Part shown: positions 8,392 through 33,373 of the stretch, piece by piece
Position numbering within the stretch: the first letter of the stretch is position 1
Layout of the letters: each line of letters opens with the position of its first letter
IMG/VR virus record: IMGVR_UViG_3300045988_023555
Location: 1 to 33,373 of that record
Direction: 5' to 3' (one strand)
Length of the DNA stretch: 33,373 nt
Origin: a virus
Made by a program: the position numbers and the translations under genes
Notes under the pieces: model-generated
Database searches by the model: none
Told to the model about the DNA's origin: nothing
Seen by the model: the letters and a program-made list of their open reading frames with translations, nothing else

Positions 8392-8420
8392 TTTATTATA
8401 TTATATATCGTTGTGCCGCT
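8392..8420 (-). promoter_or_regulatory. Consensus sigma-A promoter P4, TTGACA-17-TATAAT
   Basis: On the minus strand TTGACA (8420-8415) is followed by a 17-nt spacer and TATAAT (8397-8392). It shares the ctaTTGACAa core with P1-P3. Confidence 0.6.
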
Positions 8421-8435
8421 TTTGTCAATAGCTTT

Positions 8436-9272
8436 TTACTCTATTCCTAAAATTTCACGCATTTCTTTTTGGCTCTTGCGCAAATCCTTTTGTCTGCGGT
8501 TTTCGTTCTTTACTTCTACCGCTGCACATTTTTCGAGGATGCGGTCATATATGCGCCGCTCTGTTATCGTTGTGGGGCGAAGCAGCTCATTTCTTGTGAG
8601 GTTAGTTGTTATAATCACCGGCAGTCCTGCGCGATATCTTGCGTCGATAACATTGTACACAACTTCCGCCATATACTCCGTTTTTCTTTCTGCTGCGAGG
8701 TCGTCCAGTACCAGTAAGCTATAACTGTTTAACTCGTCAAAAATATCCTGCTTGTCGAATGTCGCTCCGAGCTCGTTTGCTATTCGTGCAAAATTTGTAA
8801 ACCTGACTGAATAGCCCTTGTCGAGCAAGGCGTTCGCAATAGCCGCCGCATAATAAGTTTTCCCGCATCCGACTGTCCCGAACATCAAAAGCCCTTGCCC
8901 CCTGTCGCGCATTGCCGCGAAGTTTTCAACATACTTTTCAAACGCATTTGACAGCTCTGGATTTAATTTGTCGTCTTTTTCAAAAGTCATTTCGCGCATC
9001 GTCGAATCGTCGAACGCGATTTCTATCCTTTTGGCTATCCTTGCTTCTCTTTCGCGCTGTTTCTTTTCCTGTTCTTCCGCTTTCACACGCTCAGACTCAC
9101 ATTTACACAGGCAGTACGGACGGCGAAGCTTCCCGCAGATAATGACCTCGCACTGCTTCGGCGTGTGACATTTTCCGCAGTGTAACAGATTGTTTTCAAT
9201 GTAATCGCCCTCATTTGTTTTGATAGCTTCTTTTGATTTTTGCTCAAGTTCGTTGATAAGTTCGTCAAACAT
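8436..9272 (-). CDS. DnaC/IstB-like AAA+ helicase loader
   Basis: The ATG at 9272 follows GGAGGTGATAAAA. Walker A is GTVGCGKTY and Walker B is LLVLDDL. An N-terminal Cys cluster is present. Confidence 0.8.
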   Translation of the reverse strand: MFDELINELEQKSKEAIKTNEGDYIENNLLHCGKCHTPKQCEVIICGKLRRPYCLCKCESERVKAEEQEKKQREREARIAKRIEIAFDDSTMREMTFEKDDKLNPELSNAFEKYVENFAAMRDRGQGLLMFGTVGCGKTYYAAAIANALLDKGYSVRFTNFARIANELGATFDKQDIFDELNSYSLLVLDDLAAERKTEYMAEVVYNVIDARYRAGLPVIITTNLTRNELLRPTTITERRIYDRILEKCAAVEVKNENRRQKDLRKSQKEMREILGIE

Positions 9273-10080
9273 TTTTATCACCTCCGGACATCCAGTCGAA
9301 TGCAGCTTCCCAGCCGTTTGTTTCATCGCTCAAGATTCGCCCGTCGCCCCCTCTAAGCTTTGGCGCAGGCGCATTCAAATAGTCCTCAAATTTTGAGCCA
9401 AACAGCGTTCCTGGTCGCAGGTATTGCTCCATGTCTGTGCCAAGCCATGTAGCGCATCTATTGTCTATCACCTGTTTGAAATCTGATAAGGTGTAGCCCT
9501 CGTTCAGCCTTGCGTTAATATGTCTCTTTGTTGTTTTGCTGCTAGGCTTGTAATTCTTGTGTGCTTTTTCGTTCAGATAGTCAACTATTTCTGTTATGAC
9601 TTTCATGTCATGCTTTTCGGCGTTCTCGACAATATTATTATCTACTATATTATCAACTATATTATATATTATATTATTATGTAAAGTTTTTTTACTACCC
9701 CCGTTAAAATTTTTAACTACCCCCTGTAAAGTTTTTTTACTACCCCCGTTAAAATTTTTAACTACCCCCTGCGGAGTTTCTTTGCCGTCGGTTGAATTGT
9801 CTACCACATAGTAGCTGCAACGCTTAACGCCGTTTATTGTCTGCTCTTCTTTTTCTAACAGCCCTTTTTTTACTAAAGATTTGAGACACGCAACAACCGT
9901 GGGGCGTGTGCTGTTAGTCCAGCTTTCGAGGTATGTCAAACTGCCGTGAAATGCCTGCCCTGTGGTCTGTGAAAAGCCGAATATAATAGCATATATCAGC
10001 AGCTCGTTTCCTTTCAATCCTAAATCTGACACCATAAAAGATTGGATTACTATGTAGTTTTTGTCAGTGATTTTGCTCAT
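9265..10080 (-). CDS. Replication organizer (DnaD-like winged helix plus conserved phage C-terminus, Phg_2220_C-like)
   Basis: The ATG at 10080 follows GGGAGGCAACAAAG. The C-terminal block ITEIVDYLNEKAHKNYKPSSKTTKRHINARLNEGYTLSDFKQVIDNRCATWLGTDMEQYLRPGTLFGSKFEDYLN is typical of phage replication proteins. Confidence 0.8.
   Translation of the reverse strand: MSKITDKNYIVIQSFMVSDLGLKGNELLIYAIIFGFSQTTGQAFHGSLTYLESWTNSTRPTVVACLKSLVKKGLLEKEEQTINGVKRCSYYVVDNSTDGKETPQGVVKNFNGGSKKTLQGVVKNFNGGSKKTLHNNIIYNIVDNIVDNNIVENAEKHDMKVITEIVDYLNEKAHKNYKPSSKTTKRHINARLNEGYTLSDFKQVIDNRCATWLGTDMEQYLRPGTLFGSKFEDYLNAPAPKLRGGDGRILSDETNGWEAAFDWMSGGDKNV
9631..9775. other. Candidate origin of replication: AT-rich tract plus four iteron-like repeats inside the organizer gene
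   Basis: 9631-9679 is almost pure A/T, with actatattat repeats. 9680-9775 carries four copies of TTTTTA(A)CTACCCCC spaced about 22-23 bp apart. Confidence 0.45.
9680..9769. repeat. Perfect 45-bp tandem duplication (2 copies)
   Basis: tgtaaagtttttttactacccccgttaaaatttttaactaccccc occurs twice. It is in frame and encodes QGVVKNFNGGSKKTL twice. Confidence 0.95.
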
Positions 10081-10100
10081 CTTTGTTGCCTCCCATTTTT

Positions 10101-10151
10101 TAAAGTAAAAGCCCCCGCGTTGATAAGGTGTGAGCAAATCAACGCAAGGGG
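10101..10151 (-). promoter_or_regulatory. Leader hairpin plus U-rich tract; candidate attenuator upstream of the replication genes
   Basis: The minus-strand RNA reads CCCTTGCGTTGAT-(13-nt loop)-ATCAACGCGGGGG, then CUUUUACUUU. It lies between promoter P5 and the organizer RBS. Confidence 0.4.
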
Positions 10152-10245
10152 CGTGGGCTGTGATATTTTGTTGTTGCCGCGATACCGCCTCACACGCAAT
10201 ATCACAGTCCGATAAGCGGCTGTAACCTGACCTCTCATCATCTTT

Positions 10246-10274
10246 ATTATAACTGATTTTAGGACAAATGTCAA
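10246..10274 (-). promoter_or_regulatory. Consensus sigma-A promoter P5, TTGACA-17-TATAAT
   Basis: On the minus strand TTGACA (10274-10269) is followed by a 17-nt spacer and TATAAT (10251-10246), with an A/T-rich upstream tract. Confidence 0.6.
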
Positions 10275-10288
10275 GCGTTTTTTAAAAT

Positions 10289-10915
10289 TTAATCGCATTC
10301 GACAAACTTGCCGTTTTTAAGCGTGTACCAAGTATCAGCCTTGATTTTTTCTCCGTCCACTATTGCCGCTTTGATATTAATTAGTGGATATGTTTCGCCG
10401 TTCCAATTGCCGCGCTCTGCAACAACGATAGCAGAGCCGAGCCCTGCCTTTGCTTTGGAGTTACAGCCTGTTACTATCGCGACAGAACCGCCGCTTGAGA
10501 CTTCAGCTGCTGAATAGTTGCCCGAATTTACGGCTGCTGAATAGTCGCCCGAATTTACGGTTGCTGAATAGTAGCCCGTGTTAGTTGCCGCGCCGTCTTT
10601 CCAATTAACCTTATCGAGGACAAACGAAACACCAGCCTGTATAAGTCCCTCAAGTCCGAGCTCAACGCCAATTTTGATTTTAGTCGAGGCAACTTTGGAG
10701 TCATCATCATGTTTGGAAAGTTCACCGCTTTGCTCCACCTCACAATATCGGTTTCCGTTGCACGGGGGATAATAGCTAAATACTTCTAAAGGATTTTCAC
10801 AAGCGTGAAATCCTTTTTCACAAGCTTTTGCTTCTTTTTCTTCATACTCTTTTCCCACTTCGTACTGAAATCCACTGCACTTTAAATCCTTGTTAAAGCC
10901 TTTATACGTTTTCAT
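10289..10915 (-). CDS. Hypothetical protein with a Cys-rich N-domain and 9-aa repeats
   Basis: 208-aa ORF. It is the only gene between promoter P1 and promoter P5. N-terminus: KCSGFQYEVGKEYEEKEAKACEKGFHACENPLEVFSYY. Central repeats: YSATVNSGDYSAAVNSGNYSAA. Confidence 0.6.
   Translation of the reverse strand: MKTYKGFNKDLKCSGFQYEVGKEYEEKEAKACEKGFHACENPLEVFSYYPPCNGNRYCEVEQSGELSKHDDDSKVASTKIKIGVELGLEGLIQAGVSFVLDKVNWKDGAATNTGYYSATVNSGDYSAAVNSGNYSAAEVSSGGSVAIVTGCNSKAKAGLGSAIVVAERGNWNGETYPLINIKAAIVDGEKIKADTWYTLKNGKFVECD
10507..10587. repeat. 27-bp tandem repeat, about 3 copies, in frame
   Basis: gctgctgaatagttgcccgaatttacg is followed by gctgctgaatagtcgcccgaatttacg and then a degenerate third copy. 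Confidence 0.85.
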
Positions 10916-10976
10916 TGTTTTTACCTCTTTCTTTTTTCTTTATTTTTTGTAAGCCCTTGTCTCACTTTGTGACTAT

Positions 10977-11005
10977 ATTATATAACATATAGTCGCGTTC
11001 GTCAA
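10977..11005 (-). promoter_or_regulatory. Sigma-A promoter P1, TTGACG-17-TATAAT, with an A/T-rich UP-like element
   Basis: On the minus strand TTGACG (11005-11000) is followed by a 17-nt spacer and TATAAT (10982-10977). Upstream is aaaaaaattcaaaaaattttaaaaaacta. It belongs to the conserved block shared with P2 and P3. Confidence 0.6.
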
Positions 11006-11048
11006 TAGTTTTTTAAAATTTTTTGAATTTTTTTAAGTTTACCGCCAA

Positions 11049-13941: not shown

Positions 13942-13993
13942 AATTTTTTACCTCTTTCTTTATTTTGTTGGTCTCCCTTGACCTTGTGACTAT

Positions 13994-14022
13994 ATTATAT
14001 ATTATTCGATTGCGTTTGTCAA
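13994..14022 (-). promoter_or_regulatory. Consensus sigma-A promoter P2, TTGACA-17-TATAAT, with UP-like element
   Basis: On the minus strand TTGACA (14022-14017) is followed by a 17-nt spacer and TATAAT (13999-13994). The block 13939-14066 aligns with 10913-11042. Confidence 0.6.
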
Positions 14023-14136
14023 TAGTTTTTTTAAAAATCTTTTGAATTTTTTTAAAGTTTTTTGCGGGCTTTTTTCGTGTTTACTTCGTTCACTTTTTTC
14101 TCGTTATAAGTATAATAGAGATAAAGGAGGAATTAT

Positions 14137-14481
14137 ATGTTTAATCCATATTATCCGAATTATCCCTATCAAAATTACACGCAGAATTATCAAAACTGTA
14201 CGCAGAATTTAGAGCGCGGCATCGTCAGGGTCAACGGAATCCAAGGTGCGCAAGCCTATCAGATGGGCGCGAACAGTTCTGTTGCTTTATTCGACGCAAA
14301 TGAGGATTTTTTCTACATCAAGACCACGGACGGCGCGGGATTTGCGTCTATCCGCAAGTTTAAATTCGTTCCGTGCGACGATGCACAGCCCGAAGCAGTC
14401 GACTATGTGACGCGAAAAGAATTTGAAGAACTGAAAGGAATGGTAGAGAATGGCAAGCAGCATATTCGGGAGACAGAATAA
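14137..14481 (+). CDS. Island gene A: hypothetical protein with a Y/N/Q/P-rich N-terminus
   Basis: Strong RBS (AAAGGAGG) 7 nt before the ATG. The N-terminus MFNPYYPNYPYQNYTQNYQN is followed by a likely beta-rich domain (GIVRVNGIQGAQAYQMGANSSVALFDANEDFFYIKTTDG). Confidence 0.6.
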   Translation: MFNPYYPNYPYQNYTQNYQNCTQNLERGIVRVNGIQGAQAYQMGANSSVALFDANEDFFYIKTTDGAGFASIRKFKFVPCDDAQPEAVDYVTRKEFEELKGMVENGKQHIRETE

Positions 14482-14644
14482 TCCTTTTTCGATGATTTCG
14501 GAATTTAAGAAATTTGCCAGCGGGATGACACCTGAAAAAGCACAGCAGGAATTGCAGAGCCTTTTAAACACAGGCAAAATATCCGAGAGCCAGCTTAACC
14601 AGTATAAACAGCAGGCACAGGATTTGATGAAATTTTTGAAATAA
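14450..14644 (+). CDS. Island gene B: hypothetical small helical protein
   Basis: 64-aa ORF that overlaps the end of gene A by 32 nt in another frame. It is Q/K-rich and probably helical. Confidence 0.45.
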   Translation: MASSIFGRQNNPFSMISEFKKFASGMTPEKAQQELQSLLNTGKISESQLNQYKQQAQDLMKFLK

Positions 14645-14687
14645 ACTGCGCGGTTTATTATAAAATTTTTAGAAAGGAAGATTGCAA

Positions 14688-15257
14688 ATGAACGAATATT
14701 CACTTTCTGACCTTGCTGCCGCAACAAGAGACGGCGACGGCTTTGGCGGCGGCGCGTGGTGGATTGTTCTCCTTTTTGTCGTCCTTATGGGCGGCGGATT
14801 TTGGGGCAACCGTCAAGGCGAGTTCGGGCAGTACGCAACAGCGGCAAGCCAGCAGGAGATTCTTTTCGGTCAGCACTTCGGGCAGCTTAACGACCGCCTG
14901 ACTAACATCAGCAACGGAATTTGTGATAGCACCTATGCGCTTAACAATTCCATCAACGCTGAGGGCAGAGCGCTTCAGAGCCAGCTTGCCTCCTGTTGCT
15001 GCGATAACAGATTAGCTACTGCCAATCTCTCGGCGCAGGTTGACAGGCAGACCTGCGACATCGCTAACGCTATCCACGCGGAAGGCGAAGCAACACGCGC
15101 ACTGATTCAGACTAACGAGATTCAGGCTCTTCGCGACAAGGTTTCGAGTTTGGAGATGGATTCCCGCTTTTGCGGCGTAGTCCGTTATCCGATGTCCTAT
15201 TCCTACAGCGCAGGAAATTCGCCGTTCTGCGGCGGATGTTGCAGCAATAACATCTAA
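14688..15257 (+). CDS. Island gene C: single-pass membrane protein, Gly-rich around the TM segment, Cys-rich
   Basis: The ATG at 14688 follows AAAGGAAG. The TM segment is GGGAWWIVLLFVVLMGGGFWG. Cys clusters are SCCCDNR and a C-terminal FCGGCCSNNI. Confidence 0.6.
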   Translation: MNEYSLSDLAAATRDGDGFGGGAWWIVLLFVVLMGGGFWGNRQGEFGQYATAASQQEILFGQHFGQLNDRLTNISNGICDSTYALNNSINAEGRALQSQLASCCCDNRLATANLSAQVDRQTCDIANAIHAEGEATRALIQTNEIQALRDKVSSLEMDSRFCGVVRYPMSYSYSAGNSPFCGGCCSNNI

Positions 15258-15329
15258 CGCCCTAACGGCGAGGCACGGCGGGGCGGCGATAGTCGCTCCG
15301 TTTTCTTATTACAGAAAGGATTGATAAAA

Positions 15330-15731
15330 ATGTCAAAGTCAGCAATATACACAACAAACACGGCAGAACAGACAATCGCGGTCAACAGTGTTATTCCAGT
15401 CGGCATTACTGCGCGTCGTTATGGATGCAATCTCCGACAAGACGGTAACACCATAACGATGGCAGGAAAAGGTTATTATCTTATTAACGCCTCTGCAACC
15501 GTCACACCGTCGGCAGCTGGAACGGCAACAATCACCGCACAGAAAGACGGCGTTGCAATAATCGGCGCATCCGCGGCTGAAACTGTAGCAGCGGCAAGCA
15601 CGACAGTCAATATGGGCATAACGGCTATAGTCCGCAATGTCTGTGACTGTGACAGCTCTATTCTGTCTTTTGTCCTGACTGGTGCGGCTTCTGTCGTCAA
15701 CAATCTCGCAATATCGGTTGAAAAGCTGTAA
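15330..15731 (+). CDS. Island gene D: A/T/V-rich, probably all-beta protein (BclA C-terminal/C1q-like is only a guess)
   Basis: The ATG at 15330 follows GAAAGGA. The sequence has alternating beta-like segments and a VRNVCDCDSS motif. No signal peptide is apparent. Confidence 0.55.
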   Translation: MSKSAIYTTNTAEQTIAVNSVIPVGITARRYGCNLRQDGNTITMAGKGYYLINASATVTPSAAGTATITAQKDGVAIIGASAAETVAAASTTVNMGITAIVRNVCDCDSSILSFVLTGAASVVNNLAISVEKL

Positions 15732-15783
15732 AAAGCGCATTTAAACAGCAGACAATAAAATCAATGAAAATTGGAGGTATTGC

Positions 15784-16230
15784 ATGAAAGAGAAAATTGA
15801 CGCATACAGAAAAAAGCTCGAAGCGGAGATCTCCGACTATATGGAAAGACCCGCCAGCGAACGCGCCGCTGAGGCGGTCATGGGAATGCTTGAGTGCTGG
15901 GAAGCTCTCGGAGATATAGACTGCGACACATTGACCCGCGAGGACTGCGAAGCGTGGAACGAAAAGATGAAAAATGCGGACGGCTCGTCCGGCGCAGTCT
16001 GGAACATGGCTCAAACAAACGCTATGGCGGGGAACAACGGCAGAGTGCCAGACTATTGCTGGAACACGGCGGTTAACATGATGTATTCTGACTATTATGA
16101 GGTCGGCAAAAAATATGGTCTACCCGCTCCTGAGTTTTACGCGGAACTCGCAAAAGCTTTTCTGTTTGACAAGGACGCAAAGTCTCCCGAGTCCAAAATG
16201 GCGGCATACTATAATTATATCGTAAAATGA
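15784..16230 (+). CDS. Island gene E: hypothetical acidic helical protein
   Basis: 148-aa ORF with a GGAGG RBS 7 nt before the ATG. Confidence 0.55.
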   Translation: MKEKIDAYRKKLEAEISDYMERPASERAAEAVMGMLECWEALGDIDCDTLTREDCEAWNEKMKNADGSSGAVWNMAQTNAMAGNNGRVPDYCWNTAVNMMYSDYYEVGKKYGLPAPEFYAELAKAFLFDKDAKSPESKMAAYYNYIVK

Positions 16231-16270
16231 CAAAAAGGCAGGGCGCAAGCTCTGCCTTTGGAGGTATTAT

Positions 16271-16561
16271 ATGATTGACTACAATTCTATCAAATCCGAT
16301 TTGGCGCAATATGAATTAGATTATGACAATTCTTTCACGGCTCTGAACAAACTTGCGCCGCTTTACTGTGCCATGCTGTACCACACCCTCTCAGACCCTC
16401 AGAATGTGCCCACAAAAGGCGATTCCGAGTTTTATAAGATAATTAGTGGTAAAAATTTAACGGCTGTTCTGGGGGTAATTGACGAGCTTTTAGGGGCTAT
16501 CAAGTGCATTAATATAAATCTTTATCAAGCCACTTTGCAAAAGCTCGTAAACCTTGATTAA
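16271..16561 (+). CDS. Island gene F: hypothetical protein
   Basis: 96-aa ORF with a GGAGG RBS. A hairpin (AGGCAG...CTGCCT) precedes it. Confidence 0.5.
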   Translation: MIDYNSIKSDLAQYELDYDNSFTALNKLAPLYCAMLYHTLSDPQNVPTKGDSEFYKIISGKNLTAVLGVIDELLGAIKCININLYQATLQKLVNLD

Positions 16562-16689
16562 CGCTTTTTAAACTTTTCGGCAAGCTTATCCTCGAACGCG
16601 ATAAGCTTGTCTTCTTTTATAAACCCGTAGATAATGCCCACAACAAGCAGGATTTCAAAGACCGTTTGAATTGCAAATTTAAAAATCAT
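16558..16689 (-). CDS. 43-aa hydrophobic peptide driven by promoter P3
   Basis: A GGGAGA RBS sits 7 nt before the ATG at 16689. Translation: MIFKFAIQTVFEILLVVGIIYGFIKEDKLIAFEDKLAEKFKKR. Its stop overlaps the stop of plus-strand gene F. It is below the ORF-track cutoff. Confidence 0.45.
   Translation of the reverse strand: MIFKFAIQTVFEILLVVGIIYGFIKEDKLIAFEDKLAEKFKKR
16579..16618 (+). terminator. Terminator of the plus-strand island
   Basis: GGCAAGCTTATC-ctcgaacgc-GATAAGCTTGTC forms a 12-bp stem with one G-U pair, followed by TTCTTTT. It lies inside the convergent 43-aa ORF. Confidence 0.55.
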
Positions 16690-16721
16690 TTTAATGTCTC
16701 CCTTCTTTGTTTTGCAGTTAT

Positions 16722-16750
16722 ATTATATACCATGTTGTTACATTTGTCAA
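16722..16750 (-). promoter_or_regulatory. Consensus sigma-A promoter P3, TTGACA-17-TATAAT, with UP-like element
   Basis: On the minus strand TTGACA (16750-16745) is followed by a 17-nt spacer and TATAAT (16727-16722). It shares ttgtcaatagttttttaaaa...ttttgaa with P1 and P2. Confidence 0.6.
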
Positions 16751-16780
16751 TAGTTTTTTAAAATATTTTTGAACTTTTTA

Positions 16781-16812
16781 AAAAACAAAAGCACCCAGCC
16801 GAAGCCGAGCAC
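16781..16812 (-). terminator. Rho-independent terminator, minus-strand specific
   Basis: The RNA reads GUGCUCGGC-UUCG-GCUGGGUGC followed by UUUUGUUUUU. Several pairs are G-U, so the stem forms only in the minus-strand transcript. Confidence 0.6.
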
Positions 16813-16833
16813 CTTTGTAGACACGCATGAAGC
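16781..16833 (-). ncRNA. Candidate small RNA 2 (about 50 nt, promoter to terminator)
   Basis: It is bounded by the TTGACT-16-TACAAT promoter (16867-16840) and the terminator at 16781-16812. No RBS is present. Confidence 0.3.
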
Positions 16834-16839
16834 ATATAT

Positions 16840-16867
16840 ATTGTATCACATATTATAAAAAAGTCAA
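16840..16867 (-). promoter_or_regulatory. Sigma-A-like promoter, TTGACT-16-TACAAT
   Basis: On the minus strand TTGACT (16867-16862) is followed by a 16-nt spacer and TACAAT (16845-16840). Confidence 0.4.
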
Positions 16868-17047: not shown

Positions 17048-17254
17048 TTACAGATATTTTATTATCAGTTTTTCACATTTGTAGATTATATTCTGAATTT
17101 GTCGGACGGAGTAGCCGAACTCCTCCGCTAAATCCTCCTGCTTTACGCCGTCAAGCCAGCGGCGCGATATAATCCTCCTGTATGTTTCGTTGTGAATCCG
17201 CTGATAAATCAGATTTTCCCATTCTTCACGGGATAATTTAGCTGTGTCAATCAT
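17048..17254 (-). CDS. Small sigma-70 region-4-like/HTH regulator (tentative)
   Basis: 68 aa. WLDGVKQEDLAEEFGYSVRQIQNIIYK looks like a region-4 HTH. The start forms an ATGA overlap with the upstream stop. Confidence 0.4.
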   Translation of the reverse strand: MIDTAKLSREEWENLIYQRIHNETYRRIISRRWLDGVKQEDLAEEFGYSVRQIQNIIYKCEKLIIKYL

Positions 17255-18039
17255 ACATAAAAGCCTATTGTCTGCATAGATTTCTTTCTGCCTGATATCC
17301 GCAGGACATAGAGCTTGTCAGACTGCGGACGATACGCCGATTTTGCCCCATAGCCGCCGAACGATAAAAAAGAGCCGCAGTTAATACACTCTATATTCTT
17401 TTTGGTGATTTTGTTGTTGTACTTGTCAAATACAAGCTTAGCCCTCGGACGGTCTTTTGCTTTGTGGTCGTGACCGCTTGCAAAAAAATCTATACCGTCC
17501 GTATAGTCGGCGGAGTGAACCGATTTAATGTCTTTTGCCTGATGTTGCAGCTGCCCGAAGTAGTGTATCTGCTTTGCGCTTGACGGCTTGATTTCTCCGA
17601 TTGCTATGTTTAGAAACGCTATTGTGTCACGGTATTTTTCCCCGATTCCTGCTATCAAGCAACAATCATATAGAGGATAAAGTCCGCAAGTTTTTGTGGC
17701 GCGGTTGTGACAGTGATTGCCGGGCACTACGGCTATAGTCTTCTCTTTCAGCTCGGATAACTGTTCTGTAACCCATTCTTTTTGATGTGCGGGGCTTGCG
17801 GTCTGCGTGAATATGTCGGACTTGCTGTTGGGAATAGCATCCTCCATTAAATCGCCCACCCAGCATATATACGCGTTAGGGTCTGCGATTATCTGTGCTT
17901 TTAAATTATTCCACTTCTTCGCGTCGAACAGCTCCGAGCCATAGTGCAAATCGTGAATAAAATATATATCTGCATATTCTTTGTCGCGAGGAAGTTTAAA
18001 AATAATCGGCGTATCGTCAGGCAAGAACATATCTGTCAC
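17251..18039 (-). CDS. Calcineurin-like metallophosphoesterase
   Basis: Motifs occur in order: IHDLHYG, WVGDLMED, VPGNHC, and later SGHDH. Confidence 0.75.
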   Translation of the reverse strand: MTDMFLPDDTPIIFKLPRDKEYADIYFIHDLHYGSELFDAKKWNNLKAQIIADPNAYICWVGDLMEDAIPNSKSDIFTQTASPAHQKEWVTEQLSELKEKTIAVVPGNHCHNRATKTCGLYPLYDCCLIAGIGEKYRDTIAFLNIAIGEIKPSSAKQIHYFGQLQHQAKDIKSVHSADYTDGIDFFASGHDHKAKDRPRAKLVFDKYNNKITKKNIECINCGSFLSFGGYGAKSAYRPQSDKLYVLRISGRKKSMQTIGFYV

Positions 18040-18133
18040 CTACTTCTTTTTGACTCGTCCACTCCCGTGGCAGGTCGGGCAGTATTTATATCCCGTTTTT
18101 CCTCCAACCTTTTTGACGCGCTTTTTAGTCGTT

Positions 18134-18397
18134 TTAACTACCTGTTTCGCCAACTATGTCACCGCCCACAAAATTATTTTGACCGTTATCGGCTTCCTGC
18201 CATACAGTCTGACTTGTCTCATCTTCAAACGAGTTCTCGTAAAGAATCCAAGCAAGATTGGACGCAAAAAGGAGCAGTATCAAAGTTAATATCAATGCAC
18301 ACAGTCTGCGCGTTGTCCGTTCCGCTCTCGCCATTGCCGATTCGTGCGCCGCGAGCGGGATGCTTTTGGTGTCACATCCGTTACAATACTTTTCCAT
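18134..18397 (-). CDS. Small single-pass membrane protein (holin-like is a guess)
   Basis: 87 aa with a central TM segment (LCALILTLILLLFASNLAWILY) and an acidic C-terminus. It follows the XhlA-like gene. Confidence 0.45.
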   Translation of the reverse strand: MEKYCNGCDTKSIPLAAHESAMARAERTTRRLCALILTLILLLFASNLAWILYENSFEDETSQTVWQEADNGQNNFVGGDIVGETGS

Positions 18398-18412
18398 TTT
18401 TGCGTCCTCCTG

Positions 18413-18643
18413 TTATTTAAAAATAATTCCGAACACTGTTGCAATAAGTGTCCCGATTGTCGCCGTTGCAATAGTCCACATCAGCTTTTCGACAACGCCT
18501 AACTTCGCAAGCCCGATTTCTATTCGCTTGTCGTCGTTAGCCAGTTTACCCGCTATTTCTTTGTGGTTCTGATTGCAAGTCGATTGCTTGACATATCGCC
18601 CGTCAAGTCTTTTTTCCAGATTTTCCATTTCCGTTACCGTCAT
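18413..18643 (-). CDS. XhlA-like membrane protein
   Basis: I take the start at the internal ATG 18643 (MTVTEMENLEKRLDG...). It has an N-terminal helical part with C..NH, then a C-terminal TM segment (LMWTIATATIGTLIATVFGIIF). This architecture matches PBSX XhlA-type proteins. Confidence 0.5.
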   Translation of the reverse strand: MTVTEMENLEKRLDGRYVKQSTCNQNHKEIAGKLANDDKRIEIGLAKLGVVEKLMWTIATATIGTLIATVFGIIFK

Positions 18644-18764
18644 CGGTTTCTTCCTCTGCGATGATTTCCTGAAGGAGCTGTATCGCGCCCTGTGTGGCGC
18701 GAGCTTGCGCCTCAAAATATTTCAGCGAGTTTCGCAGCTCTTCCAGTCTTTTTTTATAGTCCAT
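18603..18764 (-). CDS. 53-aa helical small ORF upstream of the XhlA-like gene
   Basis: A GGAGGCAACA sequence precedes the ATG at 18764. Translation: MDYKKRLEELRNSLKYFEAQARATQGAIQLLQEIIAEEETDDGNGNGKSGKKT. It is below the ORF-track cutoff. Confidence 0.4.
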   Translation of the reverse strand: MDYKKRLEELRNSLKYFEAQARATQGAIQLLQEIIAEEETDDGNGNGKSGKKT

Positions 18765-18791
18765 TGTTGCCTCCAATGATTTTATATTTAT

Positions 18792-18819
18792 ATTATATCA
18801 CTTTTAACATAAAAATCAA
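18792..18819 (-). promoter_or_regulatory. Sigma-A promoter, TTGATT-16-TATAAT
   Basis: On the minus strand TTGATT (18819-18814) is followed by a 16-nt spacer and TATAAT (18797-18792), just after the Tal stop. Confidence 0.5.
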
Positions 18820-18851
18820 GTATAACGCGGACTTTTGATTTATTTTTCCGC

Positions 18852-21026: not shown

Positions 21027-21731
21027 TTATAATTCGCGCCAGTGCGGGACAATTTCTATTTTTGTCACCGTTCCAGTCCAGCTTATAGAGTTTACGCCCG
21101 ATTTAAAGGTCGGAAAATCGTCAAAGTTCGCGCGGTCTGCCTTGCTGCTTGTGCCAGTAAATACCGCCTGCAAGTTGCTATCACATTCGATATAGCTTGA
21201 TACTGATATGAAAGCAAAGGATTTATTATTTACTTTAAGCGTGATATTTCCGCTTCCGTAAATTTTAAAATACGGCAGAGCGGTGTACTGCGTCGGATTT
21301 GTGATACTTCCTGCCGCTGTCAAGGTTGTTTTTTGGTTGCCCGTCCTGAGGTTTCTGTAAGGCTTGCAGTTAAAAGCTATCTCTATATCAGCCCATTCGC
21401 CTTTTCCGAGATAGTCCCAGTCAACAGAGCCAGTTCTCGCCGCCAGTCTGTAATGTGTAGAATCGTCGCTGTCAATTAGTTGTTGATATCCAACGGCTGA
21501 AAGCCAGTTGGCTATTTCTAACAGCTTTGACTTGACATTTTTTACGCGGACTTGATAGGTGACATCAACATTCCTATAGCGTCCGTTGTCTAAAATCACT
21601 TCTCCGTCTCTTCCGGGCACTTCGACAAAATCAGCGTCGCGGACGGGTGCTTTGTATGTTTCTTTGTGCTTGATGATTATGCCAAAGTCCGAGGACTTCT
21701 TGCCGTTCCAAGTAAAATAATCGTTAAGCAT
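21027..21731 (-). CDS. Distal tail protein (Dit)
   Basis: I take the start at ATG 21731 (MLNDYFTWNGKKSSDFGIII...), which overlaps the tape measure stop by 8 nt. Position and N-terminal motif fit a siphovirus Dit. Confidence 0.7.
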   Translation of the reverse strand: MLNDYFTWNGKKSSDFGIIIKHKETYKAPVRDADFVEVPGRDGEVILDNGRYRNVDVTYQVRVKNVKSKLLEIANWLSAVGYQQLIDSDDSTHYRLAARTGSVDWDYLGKGEWADIEIAFNCKPYRNLRTGNQKTTLTAAGSITNPTQYTALPYFKIYGSGNITLKVNNKSFAFISVSSYIECDSNLQAVFTGTSSKADRANFDDFPTFKSGVNSISWTGTVTKIEIVPHWREL

Positions 21732-23262
21732 AAGCACCCGCCTTTCTCTCTGCTGCATTTGCAAGCATTTCTGACAGCCTTTCTGCAAGGCTCTTGATGT
21801 CTTCCTGCGTATAATTATTGAATGTGTCAATATTAAGCGTTAGAGAAACTCCCTTTGACGCAGAAGTTCCGACGGAAACGCCAAACCCCGCCGATACGGA
21901 CGCGCCGTAATTGTCAATAACACCTTGCGACACATCTTTGATTGCGGAAAATGCGTCTTTACCGCCCTGCTCGATGCCGATTGCCAGTCCCTCGGTCGTG
22001 AACTTACCGATTTTCTTGAACACCTTTGACGGCGAAGCAATGCCAAGAATCTTTTTTGCAATGTTTGTAAGGTCTCCGAAGAGGTTTTTAAACCATTCTC
22101 TAAAATTTTTCCAAGCATTCGCAACACCTTGCTTCATTCCGGCTACTATGTTTTTGCCGATGCTGCTCCAGTTGTAAGAGCGGAAAGTATCAACGATTGA
22201 CGCAATAATCCGTGGTATCATTGCAACCATGTCGGGGATTGCCTGAATCATGCCCTGTGCAATAGCCAGCAGGAGACGAACACCGCCGCTTATCAGTGTT
22301 CCGAGATTGTTCAGCAGCCCGTTTGTAATCGCTATAATAACATTAGGCACATACGCCATCAGTTCGGGCAACGCTTCCATGAGTCCGTGAATTAATGCTA
22401 CCATTATTTCAACGGCTGCCGCCATGATGTTAGGCAACTCTGTGATTATTGTTGCCGTGATAGCTCCGACAAGCTGAGGAACTGCGGCAATTAACTGAGG
22501 AATAGCGTCCATTAACCCATGCACAAGCGCAAGCACCAAGTCAAGTGCAGACTCGGTTATCGCGTTAAGGCTTGCGGGGTCTGACAAAGTATTAGCAATA
22601 GCAACGACGGTCTGAGTCACCGCGTTTATTGCCGATTCTATCAGCTGTGGCAGACTGTCACTTGTGATAAGTGCCAAAATCGCTTTAAATAGCGTGTCCC
22701 AGAATTTTGGTACGGTTTCCAGCAGTTTTGCCGCGACATCGGACAACGCAGACAACAGCGGCGGAACCATTCCGTCTATCAGTGTCGGAAGTACATCCAA
22801 AACACCGTTTAAAAGGTTTGCCGTCGCGTCAAGCAGTCCGGGGAGAACCTTGTTGACTACATCAGGGAGCTTTGCAATAAGCACGGGCGCAAGCTTATCA
22901 ACGAGCTTTCCAATACCAGTCAAAGACTGCTCCACGCGGGGGAGGATATTGCCAGCCGCAATTACAACAGAGTCGACGAAGTTATCAACCAATTTGCCAA
23001 AGTTTTGATTGTCGTCTGCAATGCCGACTAACAGATTCTGCCAAGACGCCTTTGCGGAACTGAGCGAGCCTTGAATGGTCTTTTCCGCTTCTTCTCTTGT
23101 TGTGCCAGCAATGCCCATTTCTTTCTGAACGGCGTGTATTGCTTCGACGATATCAGCATAACTGGAAATGTCAAACTTCTTGCCCGTCAGTTTTTCGGCA
23201 TCTCTCAGCAGGCGTTCCATTTCCTCTTTAGTGCCACCATACATTATGTTCGCCACAGGTCG
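21724..23262 (-). CDS. Tape measure protein, exon 2 (proposed)
   Basis: It reads ...ANIMYGGTKEEMERLLRDAEKLTGKKFDISSYADIVEAIHAVQKEMGIAGTT, then a long Ala/Leu/Ile-rich helical region. There is no RBS and no plausible own start. An in-frame TAG lies 3 codons upstream of the track start. Confidence 0.7.
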   Translation of the reverse strand, partial: RPVANIMYGGTKEEMERLLRDAEKLTGKKFDISSYADIVEAIHAVQKEMGIAGTTREEAEKTIQGSLSSAKASWQNLLVGIADDNQNFGKLVDNFVDSVVIAAGNILPRVEQSLTGIGKLVDKLAPVLIAKLPDVVNKVLPGLLDATANLLNGVLDVLPTLIDGMVPPLLSALSDVAAKLLETVPKFWDTLFKAILALITSDSLPQLIESAINAVTQTVVAIANTLSDPASLNAITESALDLVLALVHGLMDAIPQLIAAVPQLVGAITATIITELPNIMAAAVEIMVALIHGLMEALPELMAYVPNVIIAITNGLLNNLGTLISGGVRLLLAIAQGMIQAIPDMVAMIPRIIASIVDTFRSYNWSSIGKNIVAGMKQGVANAWKNFREWFKNLFGDLTNIAKKILGIASPSKVFKKIGKFTTEGLAIGIEQGGKDAFSAIKDVSQGVIDNYGASVSAGFGVSVGTSASKGVSLTLNIDTFNNYTQEDIKSLAERLSEMLANAAERKAGAYA

Positions 23263-23590: not shown

Positions 23591-24070
23591 TTAGACTATA
23601 TCTTCAACCTTTTCAAAAGACCAACCTTTTTTGTTTCCTTTTTTATATAAGCGACCGTAAGCAATCTCGGAATCGCTACATTCAAAATATTCTGCCGCCG
23701 CTTGTCTGGACTCAAAAATGATTGTTTGACCGTGAATATTTGTTGCCTTGACTTTGCGCTTCTTGTTTTCGATGCGGCTTTTATATCCAAAAGCTAAACA
23801 ATTTTCCGAAGGAGTTACCCACCTCAAGTTGTTCACATCGTTGTTTGCTCGGTTTCCGTCAATGTGGTCAACCCAGCACTGCTCTTTGTTTTCAGGAGCG
23901 TCAAGAAACGCTTTTGCAACAAGCCGATGAATGCTCTTTGAAATTGTTATTCTGCAATAACCACCATTTTTACTGAGCACCATTATTTGACCGTTGCTGT
24001 CTTTTCTTACCCTGCCCTTATTGCTAACAGAATAACCGGGCAGTTCTTCAATGGGCTTCCAAATTTCCAT
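23591..24070 (-). CDS. HNH homing endonuclease (NUMOD4 plus HNH_3-like, I-HmuI type)
   Basis: The ATG at 24070 lies 8 nt after [26 protein letters not shown] fits NUMOD4. HRLVAKAFL...[24 protein letters not shown] fits HNH_3. The C-terminal part looks like a DNA-binding module. Confidence 0.8.
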
Positions 24071-24170
24071 AGTCAATTCCTCCGTTAAAGGTTGGTGAGC
24101 GCTTCCACCACCGTACCAATAGATGATGTACTTGGTAACGAACCAATAGCCGTTAGACCTTTCCTAAAAT

Positions 24171-24199: not shown

Positions 24200-24352
24200 G
24201 TGAAATTATTTATGCTTTAGGACTTGGCACGGGATTGTCATAGGCTTTTGCCCACAGATTTTTCCCGTTAGCAGGATTTCTCCCACACCCCTGGTAGGGT
24301 TCACTCACACTCAACGGCGAATTACTTACGCCGCCGGACTATAGATAAATTT

Positions 24353-24856
24353 AATCGTGAAGTTTTGCTTTGCGAAGCCTTGATAGGCATACTGGACTAA
24401 GGACATATCCGTGCCGAGCTTGTTGTAGTTATCCGCCATGTCCGTGATTGCCATATCCGCATACTTTGACGCTTTCACGGTGTCGCCGCCCAAGGACTGC
24501 AAGAGCGAAGCCGAAAAGCTTGTCACGGTCTCCATATACTGATTGGCAGAAAGTCCCGCCGTTTTATATGCGTTATCTGCATATTGCAGGATAGTATTTG
24601 ACGATTGCTTGAAAAGAGTCTCAACGCCTCCGACAAGCTGCTCATAATCGGCATAAGCGGCTGTTGCGTCTTTGACTACCTTTGACACGCCCGCCGCCAT
24701 TGCGCCTGTTGCGACAACGGCTACTTTGGTGACGGTTTTTAAACCGCTTTTGACCTTTTCGCCTAAGTTTTTTGTTTTTTCGCCAGTGTCCTTTATTGCC
24801 TTATCGGATTCGGATGTGTCCGCTCCGATTTTAATAAATACTTCAAATAAATTCAA
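24353..24856 (-). CDS. Tape measure protein, exon 1 (proposed)
   Basis: The TTG start overlaps the chaperone stop, with GAGGTG 5 nt upstream. It ends ...LVQYAYQGFAKQNFTI, and the unspliced reading frame stops 8 codons later. Confidence 0.7.
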
Positions 24857-30263: not shown

Positions 30264-30358
30264 TACATCATTCCCAAGAGTTTAAGAATTGCCACGACGA
30301 TTCCTGCGCCGTAAAGTCCCATAAGGTTGAGTAGATTATACAGTATTGCAATAATCAT
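30263..30358 (-). CDS. 31-aa hydrophobic peptide between the holin and the head gene
   Basis: The start forms an ATGA overlap with the holin stop, and the stop forms a TAATG overlap with the next start. Translation: MIIAILYNLLNLMGLYGAGIVVAILKLLGMM. Confidence 0.4.
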   Translation of the reverse strand: MIIAILYNLLNLMGLYGAGIVVAILKLLGMM

Positions 30359-30642
30359 TCTCCCGTGTCCTCCTTTGCGTCGCCCTGCTCGTGGAGGAAC
30401 TTATCGGCGGTCTGTGCTGCTTCCGTGAAGCTGTTATTCTTCCAGTATGCAGAGATTCCGACGAGTACCGAGAAAATAACGCTGACGATTGTGTAAAGCT
30501 CGTTGTAATCTGCGGGAATAGGTGCTTTGCCAGCCGCCGAAAGTGCCATGTTGACAAACGAGATAATGAGCAGGATGCCTCTAACCCATGTGCCCACTTT
30601 GACATTGCTGATGTTTGCGAAAATGTCCTTGATTTTGTCCAT
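30355..30642 (-). CDS. Holin (phi LC3-family-like)
   Basis: 95 aa with two TM segments and the motif YWKNNSFTEAAQ. It lies directly downstream of the endolysin. Confidence 0.75.
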   Translation of the reverse strand: MDKIKDIFANISNVKVGTWVRGILLIISFVNMALSAAGKAPIPADYNELYTIVSVIFSVLVGISAYWKNNSFTEAAQTADKFLHEQGDAKEDTGE

Positions 30643-30651
30643 TGTGTTACC

Positions 30652-31644
30652 TCACATTTTTAAATATTTTATAGCAACCCACGACATTATATCAGAAAGC
30701 AATGCTTCTCTTACTCCGTTGTGAGTTTCTATTTTACTGACTGTGTGCTTCTTTGGCGCAAGCTGTTCTTTTGGAACTGCCTTGCCTCTTGCCGCCGTGA
30801 GTCCGCCGTAGGTCGCGCCCGGCTGAATAGTGACCGTCGAGCCAATGGCTATATTTGCGGACGACTGCACAACGGTAAGGTCGGAGACATAGACCCATGA
30901 GCGAATTTCCTTGAGCAGTGCTCGGCTTCCGCTGACGGTCTTGACCGTGTGCTTTTTAAGCTTGACCCACACCGGTATTCTCTGTCCGGTCGCGTACTTG
31001 CTGCCTTTTATTTTGACGATATCCCCCGCCCTGACGGTTGTTCTCGGTTTGTCCTCGCTCGGCTTGACTGCCGGAGCGGACTTTTTCTTTATGCCGTAAA
31101 AATCGGCGATAGCCTTGACAATAGCCTCTGCGCACTGTCTCTGTCCTGCGGCGGTCTCGACGTGCTTGCGGTCGCTCGCGGTGTCAATGAATACGGTCTC
31201 AATCAGCAGGCTCTCGCACTTGCATGAGCGGACAAATCCAAAATAGTCCGTGCCGTTTGACGGATTGATTTTGACCTTGGCGCCTCTATCGCGGATGCCG
31301 AAAGCGTTAGCTATGCTCTTGCTGATTGCTCCGGCGAGCTTTTTGCCCGTTGCGCTCTTGTGCTTATAGTAGACCTCCGAGCCTGTGCCGCCTGCGGCGT
31401 TAAGGTGGATTTCAATCGCGAGGTCATAGCCGTGTTTGTTGACATGTGCTATGCGCTCGGTCAGATAAAGCGTCGCGTCATAGTTGATAACGTCAGCTGT
31501 GCAATTGTAGCCTTTGAACACTTCTCCTATGTACTTGCCTATCTCGCGTCCTATTTTAAACTCCTGATAGTTTCCGCCGAGAGCGCCGCTGTCATAGCCG
31601 CCCTTGGCTGATTTGCCGTGACCGATTGATACGCAGATATTCAT
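30652..31644 (-). CDS. Endolysin: N-acetylmuramoyl-L-alanine amidase (Amidase_3) with two SH3-like wall-binding repeats
   Basis: The N-terminus ICVSIGHGKSAKGGYDSGA...AIEIHLNA fits Amidase_3. Two C-terminal repeats are GDIVKIKGSKYATGQRIPVWV... and GSTVTIQPGATYGG... An AGGAGG RBS precedes the start. Confidence 0.85.
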   Translation of the reverse strand: MNICVSIGHGKSAKGGYDSGALGGNYQEFKIGREIGKYIGEVFKGYNCTADVINYDATLYLTERIAHVNKHGYDLAIEIHLNAAGGTGSEVYYKHKSATGKKLAGAISKSIANAFGIRDRGAKVKINPSNGTDYFGFVRSCKCESLLIETVFIDTASDRKHVETAAGQRQCAEAIVKAIADFYGIKKKSAPAVKPSEDKPRTTVRAGDIVKIKGSKYATGQRIPVWVKLKKHTVKTVSGSRALLKEIRSWVYVSDLTVVQSSANIAIGSTVTIQPGATYGGLTAARGKAVPKEQLAPKKHTVSKIETHNGVREALLSDIMSWVAIKYLKM

Positions 31645-33131: not shown

Positions 33132-33373
33132 CAGTAACTACCTCCTGTCCACTTTGGCAGAGCGGCTATGACATCATTAACAATCTCTTGCTTGTCCGAT
33201 TTCGTCCAATAGTCAGTGCCCTTGACGGGTGTTTTGCCGTCTGTGCCCGTTGCTCCCGTGTCGCCCCTTGCGCCAGCAACTCCGCGAGACGGTTTCCCGG
33301 TGTCTGTATTGCCAATGTACCAATTTCCATTGTCGCCAATGTGCGGGGTGACACCGTTCTCGCCACGAGACGG
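33131..33373 (-). CDS. Collagen-like tail fibre, 3' part (continuation of 1-784 across the junction)
   Basis: My translation reads ...PSRGENGVTPHIGDNGNWYIGNTDTGKPSRGVAGARGDTGATGTDGKTPVKGTDYWTKSDKQEIVNDVIAALPKWTGGSY*. The listed 33166-33366 ORF is a different frame. Confidence 0.75.
   Translation of the reverse strand, partial: PSRGENGVTPHIGDNGNWYIGNTDTGKPSRGVAGARGDTGATGTDGKTPVKGTDYWTKSDKQEIVNDVIAALPKWTGGSY
33319..33373. repeat. 55-bp terminal direct repeat, identical to 1-55
   Basis: Exact match to the window start. Confidence 0.9.

Follow-up and report, generated by a model that had tools for sequence, protein, structure and literature searches.

A six-gene island as one copy of a probably mobile, regulator-linked accessory operon of Clostridia siphophages

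Morons, a concept that comes from lambdoid phages, are autonomous promoter-gene-terminator units lodged between phage modules. Membrane proteins dedicated to superinfection exclusion form another group of phage accessory factors, represented by lactococcal Sie2009, Streptococcus thermophilus Ltp, Imm and Sp of T4 and gp15 of HK97. Here these systems are compared with an island of six plus-strand genes, A to F, located at positions 14137-16561 of the viral record IMGVR_UViG_3300045988_023555, the entire 33,373 nucleotides of which are referred to below as the window. The island very probably belongs to a mobile, dispensable and regulator-linked type of accessory operon ("moron") of Clostridia siphophages. 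Judging from gene content and order, it is one copy of a large unnamed module, in which A-B-C plus a small beta-rich protein (D), often accompanied by E and F, recurs in a constant order in more than 100 gut phage and prophage loci. The components of the island and its helix-turn-helix (HTH) partner gene are as follows.

14089-14116, plus strand: candidate island promoter, TTCACT-16-TATAAT, 10 of 12 consensus positions in a consensus scan, back-to-back with the early promoter P2
14137-14481, plus strand: gene A, 114 amino acids (aa)
14450-14644, plus strand: gene B, 64 aa
14688-15257, plus strand: gene C, 189 aa
15277-15302, plus strand: terminator-like hairpin with U-run between C and D, free energy (dG) about -19 to -20 kcal/mol, z -3.0
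15330-15731, plus strand: gene D, 133 aa
15784-16230, plus strand: gene E, 148 aa
16234-16259, plus strand: hairpin after E, just 5' of the ribosome-binding site of F, dG -19 kcal/mol, z -4.1, kept in all three variants with a deletion of A-E
16271-16561, plus strand: gene F, 96 aa
16579-16611, plus strand: intrinsic terminator of the island, dG -17.2 kcal/mol, z -4.6, followed by a U-run and lying inside the m43 gene
17048-17254, minus strand: sig68, encoding a 68-aa HTH protein of the sigma-70 region 4 type, with weak Pfam matches to HTH_28 and Sigma70_r4, below all Pfam cut-offs

An earlier reading of this DNA, made from the sequence only, had described six tightly packed plus-strand genes, each led by a ribosome-binding site (RBS), among phage functions encoded on the minus strand. 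This description holds: all six open reading frames (ORFs) are present, a purine-rich RBS precedes each of them, and ATG codons at 14688 and 15330 are the likely starts of C and D, instead of upstream TTG codons. Between the window and its relative L029, the ratio of nonsynonymous to synonymous substitution rates (dN/dS) is 0.00 for A, 0.08 for B, 0.04 for C, 0.05 for D, 0.01 for E and 0.09 for F, with dS of 0.25-0.48, and such strong purifying selection marks A-F as genuine genes rather than chance ORFs. The terminator proposed for the island was also recovered. Its promoter, previously considered weak by eye, does not appear particularly weak given its match to the consensus, and the promoter region is in part kept in the deletion variants described below. 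The limits assigned to the unit proved too narrow, since sig68 also belongs to it.

Co-occurrence of the gene families in other genomes, on which the sequence-only reading had placed weight, was found: the order A-B-C-D(-E) is kept in 27 loci, and A is present in 79 of the 80 IMG/VR loci anchored on C. Gut phage contigs of 30-45 kb and Oscillospiraceae prophages, e.g., those of Dysosmobacter, harbour most of the C homologues, and the module is also carried by the cultured Clostridium perfringens phages HMD-PC1, vB_CpeS-17DYC, PMQ04 and XP41-N3. With an identical A protein and equal module gene lengths, it can adjoin a tyrosine integrase, a serine recombinase or a prophage end. In a temperate relative it is found 3' of the holin and endolysin genes, next to the host ComEC gene; in the integrase-less C. 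perfringens siphophages it occupies the early region between the antirepressor and Gam/recombinase genes, with about 13 small genes separating it from the holin, and in loci L037-L041 it is near no lysis gene. The conserved core is HTH-A-B-C, followed by a variable tail composed of D or an alternative protein, D2, together with E and F, which are variable add-ons (E occurs in about half of the module loci). The hairpin between C and D, found at the same position in L004 and L008, marks the boundary between the two parts.

In L008 and L009, which share the Sak-NinB-SSB early genes with the window, sig68, A, B, C, D, E, F and the early genes follow one another in this order on one strand, whereas in the window and in 20 of the 80 IMG/VR loci A-F are inverted relative to sig68 and to everything else. 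This local inversion is the reason why A-F are the only plus-strand genes of the window and why sig68 lies on the strand opposite to them. Hence, the observation that nothing else is encoded on the plus strand is correct for the window, but it does not reflect a special feature of the module, whose genes are co-directional with their surroundings in relatives. Both GC and AT skew reverse sign solely over 14.0-16.5 kb; every other plus-strand ORF of 100 aa or more overlaps a longer ORF on the minus strand and was discarded by a longest-ORF gene call. Plus-strand ORFs at 17944-18838 were also considered as genes and rejected, as their sequences do not look like those of proteins and short minus-strand ORFs tile the region.

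A sigma-70 region 4 or GerE-type HTH protein of 65-90 aa is encoded directly upstream of A in most loci with a readable upstream gene. Among ten representatives of these upstream proteins, nine match Sigma70_r4 or GerE and four do so above the cut-off, with GerE scores reaching 47.4 and 32.2 bits. In the window group, the three relatives without A-E, and no others, have lost sig68, and all three island-bearing genomes keep an intact copy; the loss of sig68 is a separate in-frame deletion leaving about 12 codons (the first and the last ones), with at least two different junctions. Across 80 loci anchored on Sak, the sig68 family occurs only together with module genes, both being present in 5 loci and neither in 67. 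This co-loss and co-occurrence assign sig68 to the module, as the partner and probable regulator of the operon. A role of sig68 as a general activator of late genes was considered and rejected, since the relatives without it have genomes that appear otherwise intact in the stretches that were compared. In eight of the upstream regions read, an intrinsic-terminator-like hairpin with a T-run separates the HTH gene from A, and the three loci inspected in full (L004, L008 and L001) have the HTH stop codon, the hairpin and A in succession. In relatives, the strong hairpin and its T-run are followed by a conserved GTAC/CATATAAG-like motif and then by the RBS (L004 9331-9450; L001 5400-5510; L019, L022 and L027). 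This region could represent a leader terminator, an attenuator or an HTH-dependent promoter.

The dispensability of the island is evident from natural deletions. Five close relatives, with protein identities of 97-99% for MPE262 and about 88-96% for the early genes, differ in this respect: the island is present in L029 and L031, A-E are missing from L030, and A-F are missing from L028 and L032; F is kept in L030 and is cut to six codons and replaced in L028 and L032. The junctions, in window positions, are 14114 to 16210 in L032, 14096 to 16225 in L030 and 14064 to 16231 in L028, with microhomology of at most 10 nt. The elements that bear on these events are listed below.

13994-14022, minus strand: P2, early promoter with a perfect TTGACA-17-TATAAT; its block covers 13991-14053 and flanks the module from outside
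14105-14114: left microhomology of the L032 deletion, TATAAGTATA
16210-16219: right microhomology of the L032 deletion, TATAATTATA, within the last codons of E
16558-16689, minus strand: m43, gene of a conserved 43-aa membrane protein, convergent with F with a 4-nt overlap of the stop codons; a neighbour outside the module
16722-16750, minus strand: P3, a perfect TTGACA-17-TATAAT driving the 43-aa gene towards the island; its block covers 16719-16781 and flanks the module from outside

Since L032 keeps the last six codons and the stop of E (YNYIVK and stop), the island-less state arose by deletion and is not an empty ancestral site. Insertion into such a site was considered and rejected on account of this remnant and of the first and last codons of sig68 that remain in the relatives. 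The perfect consensus of the minus-strand promoters, noted earlier, was confirmed for both P2 and P3. The suggestion that they bracket the island survived in part: their blocks are indeed direct copies of each other, but they belong to a family of four to five copies (8397-8459, 10974-11036, 13991-14053 and 16719-16781, plus a looser one at 10245-10288) and are thus no peculiarity of the island. As the route of island loss, the proposed recombination between P2 and P3 was rejected in view of the three natural deletions, which end elsewhere and remove only A-E in common, while P3 and m43 stay in the island-less relatives. Accordingly, relatives lacking the island exist, as anticipated, but they do not lack it precisely between the repeats.

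In relatives, the gap between P3 and P2 contains other cargo, namely genes of pentapeptide-repeat proteins (109, 279 and 230 aa) and of a 164-aa membrane-anchored hydrolase-like protein. The P3-P2 interval is an accessory-gene hot spot. The cargo loci equivalent to the window gap 16560-16700 are the following.

L028, 9181-10171
L032, 1954-4290
L029, 9491-10183

The remaining genome is that of a siphophage. As bases 1-55 are identical to 33319-33373 (55-nt ends), the window represents a complete genome of 33,318 bp assembled as a circle, and all recognisable genes are on the minus strand, including those of the SPP1-type portal, large terminase, ParB-methylase, DnaD-like replication protein, SSB and Sak, the capsid-to-tail genes, and those of a Prophage_tail protein, SPP1 holin and Amidase_3. 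Neither an integrase nor a repressor was seen in the window genome. The earlier view of the island as an accessory unit of no assignable function is supported by its absence from near-identical phages. It is neither structural nor part of core lysis, the portal, terminase, capsid-tail, holin and amidase genes being located elsewhere. Two of these other loci are of importance for the discussion below.

30355-31644: SPP1 holin and amidase, about 14 kb from the island
33131 through the contig junction to 784, minus strand: collagen-like (GXY) fibre gene, 323 aa

The most informative product of the island is D. Its AlphaFold2 (AF2) model is an all-beta, ten-strand jelly roll, superposable on that of BclA, with a predicted local distance difference test (pLDDT) of 91.3 and a predicted template modelling score (pTM) of 0.83; D is thus all-beta, as the sequence-only reading had thought probable, and it has no signal peptide. 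A Foldseek search returned the C-terminal domain (CTD) of BclA (3twi, E 2e-9, TM score 0.77), F-BclA (9h38), ExsFA (7r5i) and BxpB (8d02), followed by C1q and TNF ligands, and a profile of the D family also matched BclA 3twi in the PDB (E 6e-5). Against Pfam BclA_C (PF18573), D scores 18.7 bits, under the 38-bit cut-off; a precomputed PF18573 match exists on one D homologue (P0229), and the homologues fall into 512 clusters. D is thus confidently modelled as a stand-alone jelly roll of the BclA-C/ExsFA/C1q-TNF-like type, which presumably forms a trimer. It has no GXY repeats or collagen-like stalk, the fold starting at residue 4 of 133. The TNF/C1q fold is also common in phage fibres, where it is found at fibre tips, and D was considered as a paralogue of the tip of the phage's own fibre; this was rejected by eye, as the C-terminus of the collagen-like fibre protein looks different from D (the two were not aligned).

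In many copies of the module D is replaced by D2, a beta-rich protein of about 120-135 aa with an N-terminal CxxxCxxC motif and further conserved cysteines. With a length of about 126 aa, D2 occupies the D slot in 28 of the 80 C-anchored IMG/VR loci, in L002 and in C. perfringens phages, as in the following examples.

L080, 7642-8022
L002, 6582-6992
L035 (phage HMD-PC1), 5494-5853

D2 has no match in Pfam or the PDB. Distant homology between D and D2 was tried and rejected (hhalign probability 0.05), and the two proteins are treated as unrelated.

The only product of the island that would be able to reach or cross the membrane is C. It has an acidic N-terminal tail, a single N-terminal hydrophobic span, i.e., a transmembrane (TM) helix, with Gly-rich flanks, and nine cysteines, in agreement with its initial description as a single-pass membrane protein, and belongs to phrog_16490. 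Its long following region is probably helical or coiled-coil, judging from the sequence; profile searches of the PDB gave only generic, mostly trimeric coiled coils, at E above 0.08. The family comprises 4,064 clusters at 90% identity and 1,276 at 50%. Members range from 65 to 251 aa in 150 clusters among the matches listed (full-length ones are about 165-235 aa, with no signs of fusion), and across 58 diverse members the conserved cysteines are kept in 60-95%, the CCC motif in 71-79% and the C-terminal cluster in up to 95%.

A consists of a Y/N/Q/P-rich low-complexity N-terminus, a conserved small domain (VNG..GA.A..M.PNSS...D....TDGAG) and a short C-terminal helix. It matches phrog_21718 (E 1e-17), a PHROG of unknown function, and its homologues form 125 clusters, none of them annotated; neither Pfam nor the PDB, including a profile search, gave a match. 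The small Q-rich protein B (phrog_22984, E 5e-11), which is probably helical, adjoins A in most loci. The start of B lies within the 3' end of A in all loci, with an overlap of 32 nt in the window and of about 50-60 nt in relatives when the longest ORFs are taken. A programmed frameshift fusing A and B was judged unlikely by eye, as a +1 shift would be needed, no slippery site is present and B has its own conserved N-terminus. E is a member of DUF7841 (PF25223, E 1e-16, 61.5 bits against a 25.2-bit cut-off) with no significant match in the PDB. F is probably helical, according to the earlier reading of its sequence; it has no match in the function libraries searched, and a distant F-like protein is encoded by C. 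perfringens phage HMD-PC1 (E 1e-6). No signal peptide or lipobox was found in A, B, D, E and F, nor any N-terminal hydrophobic segment other than that of C.

Taken together, these features outline a tentative mechanism. With C alone able to reach or cross the membrane and with neither signal peptides nor lipoboxes in the other proteins, the products most likely assemble on C. In such a complex, C would be an oligomeric, probably trimeric, coiled-coil stalk at the cytoplasmic membrane, and D would be the trimeric jelly-roll head mounted on it. A and B would be translationally coupled partners of C, their overlap suggesting a stoichiometric pair, and the HTH protein would control the operon. The presence/absence polymorphism, purifying selection, shuffling among backbones and hot-spot position point to a conditional advantage in conflict at the cell envelope. 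A membrane-anchored complex engaged in envelope-level conflict, either between phages or between phage and host, is therefore our preferred reading, although we hold it with less than even confidence. Among specific roles, superinfection exclusion, in which other phages are kept from entering, is the most likely one and, taken by itself, is still rather unlikely.

Several observations weigh against this picture. The AF2 model of C, obtained from a shallow alignment, has a pLDDT of 40 and shows no confident fold. The N-terminal tail of C has 0.6 K+R and 3.4 D+E, while the flank after the TM helix, with 1.1 K+R, is slightly more positive; this bias weakly predicts an N-out/C-in topology, which would place the whole complex inside the cell and off the surface. 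Searches of NCBIfam, Pfam and PHROGs returned only unknown-function PHROGs, DUF7841 and the weak BclA_C match, with no exclusion, defence or anti-defence function, and PADLOC gave no match better than E 0.013. The module is also kept in apparently virulent phages (that of the window and HMD-PC1), where exclusion of the prophage type makes less sense. As for the link to the regulator, the joint loss of sig68 and A-E is drawn from six genomes, all of them related and phylogenetically non-independent. Searches of the literature on DUF7841, on BclA together with prophages, on C. perfringens phages and on the cultured phages named above found genome announcements only, with no functional data and no account of the module.

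The charge bias of C leads to a different and unlikely possibility, in which C anchors a cytoplasmic complex with N-out/C-in topology that acts early in infection, as a take-over or anti-defence device; such a device might block cell division, hold phage replication or assembly at the membrane, or counteract a host defence. The predicted cytoplasmic location of the C-terminal domain of C is weakly favourable to it, and so are the partner proteins devoid of export signals, the early-region position between antirepressor and Gam/recombinase genes in virulent C. perfringens phages, and the fact that the window module adjoins early promoter P2 and has its own sigma-70-like promoter. Polymorphic presence combined with strong constraint is typical of arms-race genes, and pentapeptide-repeat genes share the same hot spot in relatives. 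However, no similarity to known anti-defence or division-inhibitor proteins was found in Pfam, PHROGs or PADLOC, and in temperate relatives a terminator precedes the module, which is located at the late prophage end and not among the early genes. To our knowledge, no cytoplasmic role has been described for a TNF/C1q-like trimer, which also counts against this possibility.

The position of the module directly after the holin and endolysin genes in many temperate relatives raises the question of an accessory lysis function, in which C would act as a spanin-like or lysis-timing protein working with holin and endolysin, and A, B and D would be its helpers. The layout of C, with an N-terminal TM helix, a coiled coil and conserved cysteines, resembles that of an i-spanin, and sig68 of the window comes after a group of genes for small membrane proteins that lies downstream of the tail genes. 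We nevertheless consider this improbable. Near-identical phages have deleted the module; in the window it is inverted and remote from the SPP1-type holin and amidase; and neither the loci L037-L041 nor the C. perfringens phages place it beside a lysis gene. In the three loci read, a terminator stands between the module and the upstream gene, and the absence of a lipobox from A, B, D, E and F leaves C without a lipoprotein partner. Moreover, monoderm Clostridia hosts have no outer membrane that would need a spanin.

The similarity of D to Bacillus spore-surface proteins suggests yet another role, namely a conversion of the spore or cell surface by a cassette resembling an exosporium or appendage, with expression either in the lysogen or in the mother cell during sporulation. 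The parts of this cassette would be a BclA/ExsFA-like or Cys-rich beta protein, a Cys-rich anchor, a Tyr/Asn/Gln-rich protein and a GerE-type regulator. BclA, F-BclA and ExsFA/BxpB are the best matches of D in both sequence and fold, C and D2 are Cys-rich, and, as with coat proteins assembled in the mother cell, no export would be needed. The hosts are Clostridia, including the spore-former C. perfringens, and upstream regulators of some relatives score above the GerE cut-off of Pfam (47 and 32 bits), although sig68 of the window gives only a weak region 4 match. The fold is frequent in phage fibres as well; no ExsY/CotY, CdeC or Ena homology was detected in Pfam searches with A, C, D2 and C-family members; the module is strongly constrained in integrase-less phages; and C has a TM helix, which is unusual in coat proteins. 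In several relatives a CATATAAG-like box lies ahead of A, which is similar to the -10 element of the mother-cell sigma factor of Clostridioides difficile, reported as CATAT(A/T)AT (PMC3789822). The same box, though, fits sigma-A equally well, and no consistent -35 element accompanies it. Surface conversion is a doubtful explanation.

A bolder variant treats HTH-A-B-C as a self-regulated, membrane-anchored scaffold with interchangeable Cys-rich beta-sandwich heads (D or D2), i.e., as an undescribed self-assembling structure. We regard it as a long shot. If true, the scaffold would form either an exosporium- or appendage-like layer remodelling the host spore or cell surface or an intracellular lattice, and would represent a new functional system and not another single-gene exclusion factor.

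A virion-associated role, with D as a head or tail decoration or a fibre tip and A and B as assembly factors, is very improbable: despite the frequency of TNF/C1q-like domains at fibre tips, the position of the module at the end of the late operon in relatives and the collagen-like fibre gene owned by the phage, the module is dispensable in near-identical phages, includes a membrane protein and a dedicated HTH gene, is separated from the late genes by a terminator and lies in the early region of C. perfringens phages, while D has no N-terminal anchoring or collagen segment and its slot accepts an unrelated protein.

The surroundings of the island merit a brief description in their own right. 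Each promoter block of the P2/P3 family combines an A/T-rich UP-like run with a minus-strand TTGACA-17-TATAAT and stands at the head of a leftward early transcription unit. The m43 gene stands behind P3, and its coding sequence contains the island terminator hairpin; its product is 75-95% identical in the five relatives, whether the island is present or absent, the membrane assignment coming from hydropathy. As no good minus-strand terminator follows m43, transcripts from P3 may continue into the island in antisense orientation. Two copies exist of a second promoter type, TTGACT-16-TACAAT with an upstream TG, one in the 16785-16867 region and one at 18786-18828. About 20 nt past the copy at 16867-16840 there is a strong minus-strand terminator (16818-16785), and this pair, located between sig68 and P3, suggests a very short transcript or an attenuator.

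Short minus-strand ORFs at 18040-18776 (57, about 75, 87 and 37 aa), at least two of them with a hydrophobic span, lie between a tail gene and the metallophosphoesterase-sig68 pair. They have no Pfam matches; the 87-aa protein resembles by eye a 102-aa protein that precedes sig68 in L008. This group may be a second lysis-associated cluster, apart from the SPP1 holin and amidase. Elsewhere in the genome, a minus-strand ORF of a NUMOD4 and HNH_3 homing endonuclease (23591-24076) is found between tape-measure-like ORFs at 24326-24856 and 21724-23256, which suggests that the tape-measure gene has been split or invaded by the mobile endonuclease. Four alternating 22/23-nt direct repeats (iterons) at 9680-9769, within the DnaD-like/Phg_2220_C replication gene (9265-10137), are a probable origin of replication, and three 27-nt tandem repeats are present at 10485-10578 within a DUF7666 gene (10289-10915).

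The significance of the module lies first of all in its abundance. Phages of gut Oscillospiraceae and other Clostridia are numerous and have received almost no study, and the module is among their commonest accessory units, while A, B, C, F and D2 remain unannotated and fall into no Pfam family despite the size of the C family. It moves between temperate and virulent phages and is strongly constrained yet repeatedly deleted. The cultured C. perfringens phages make its role directly testable; it might turn out to be a novel means of exclusion or anti-defence or, at the other end of the range, a way for phages to remodel the surface of cells or spores with BclA-like proteins.

Returning to the described systems, individual components of the module have recognisable counterparts of varying closeness. 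D shares the jelly-roll fold of the BclA CTD and of ExsFA/BxpB of the Bacillus exosporium (TM score 0.75-0.84, Foldseek probability 1.0), and ExsFA/BxpB is, like D, a small stand-alone domain. Identity is about 15-21%, and D differs in being phage-borne, in falling below the Pfam cut-off and in having neither a collagen-like stalk nor an exosporium-targeting N-terminus. The proposed combination of a C stalk and a D head recalls TNF-superfamily ligands, with their type II membrane stalk and trimeric TNF-homology head; this is an architectural analogy only, with no homology implied, since C and D are separate polypeptides, D has no export signal and the pairing of C with D is hypothetical. With the lambda Rz-type i-spanin, C has in common the N-terminal TM helix, the coiled coil, the conserved cysteines and, in many relatives, the place after holin and endolysin, whereas the monoderm hosts, the missing o-spanin lipoprotein, the dispensability of the module and its lack of linkage to lysis in the window and in L037-L041 set it apart. 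The 65-90-aa upstream proteins are comparable to GerE and other stand-alone LuxR-type HTHs and to sigma-70 region 4, matching GerE, Sigma70_r4 and Sigma70_r4_2, with sig68 doing so weakly.

As regards function, the module resembles the superinfection-exclusion proteins in containing a small membrane-anchored phage protein that is non-essential, polymorphic among relatives and encoded near the lysogeny region, and differs from them in the absence of sequence similarity, in having several components instead of one and in its weak topology prediction. As regards the type of element, it is most like the morons, with which it shares a promoter (here a candidate one) and terminator of its own, a site at a module boundary or near an integrase, absence from close relatives and shuffling among backbones, and from which it departs in holding five to seven genes and a dedicated HTH partner and in occurring in integrase-less phages as well. 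Thus, the kind of element, a moron or accessory operon, is already known, whereas its composition, the dedicated HTH partner and the swappable Cys-rich beta protein are new.

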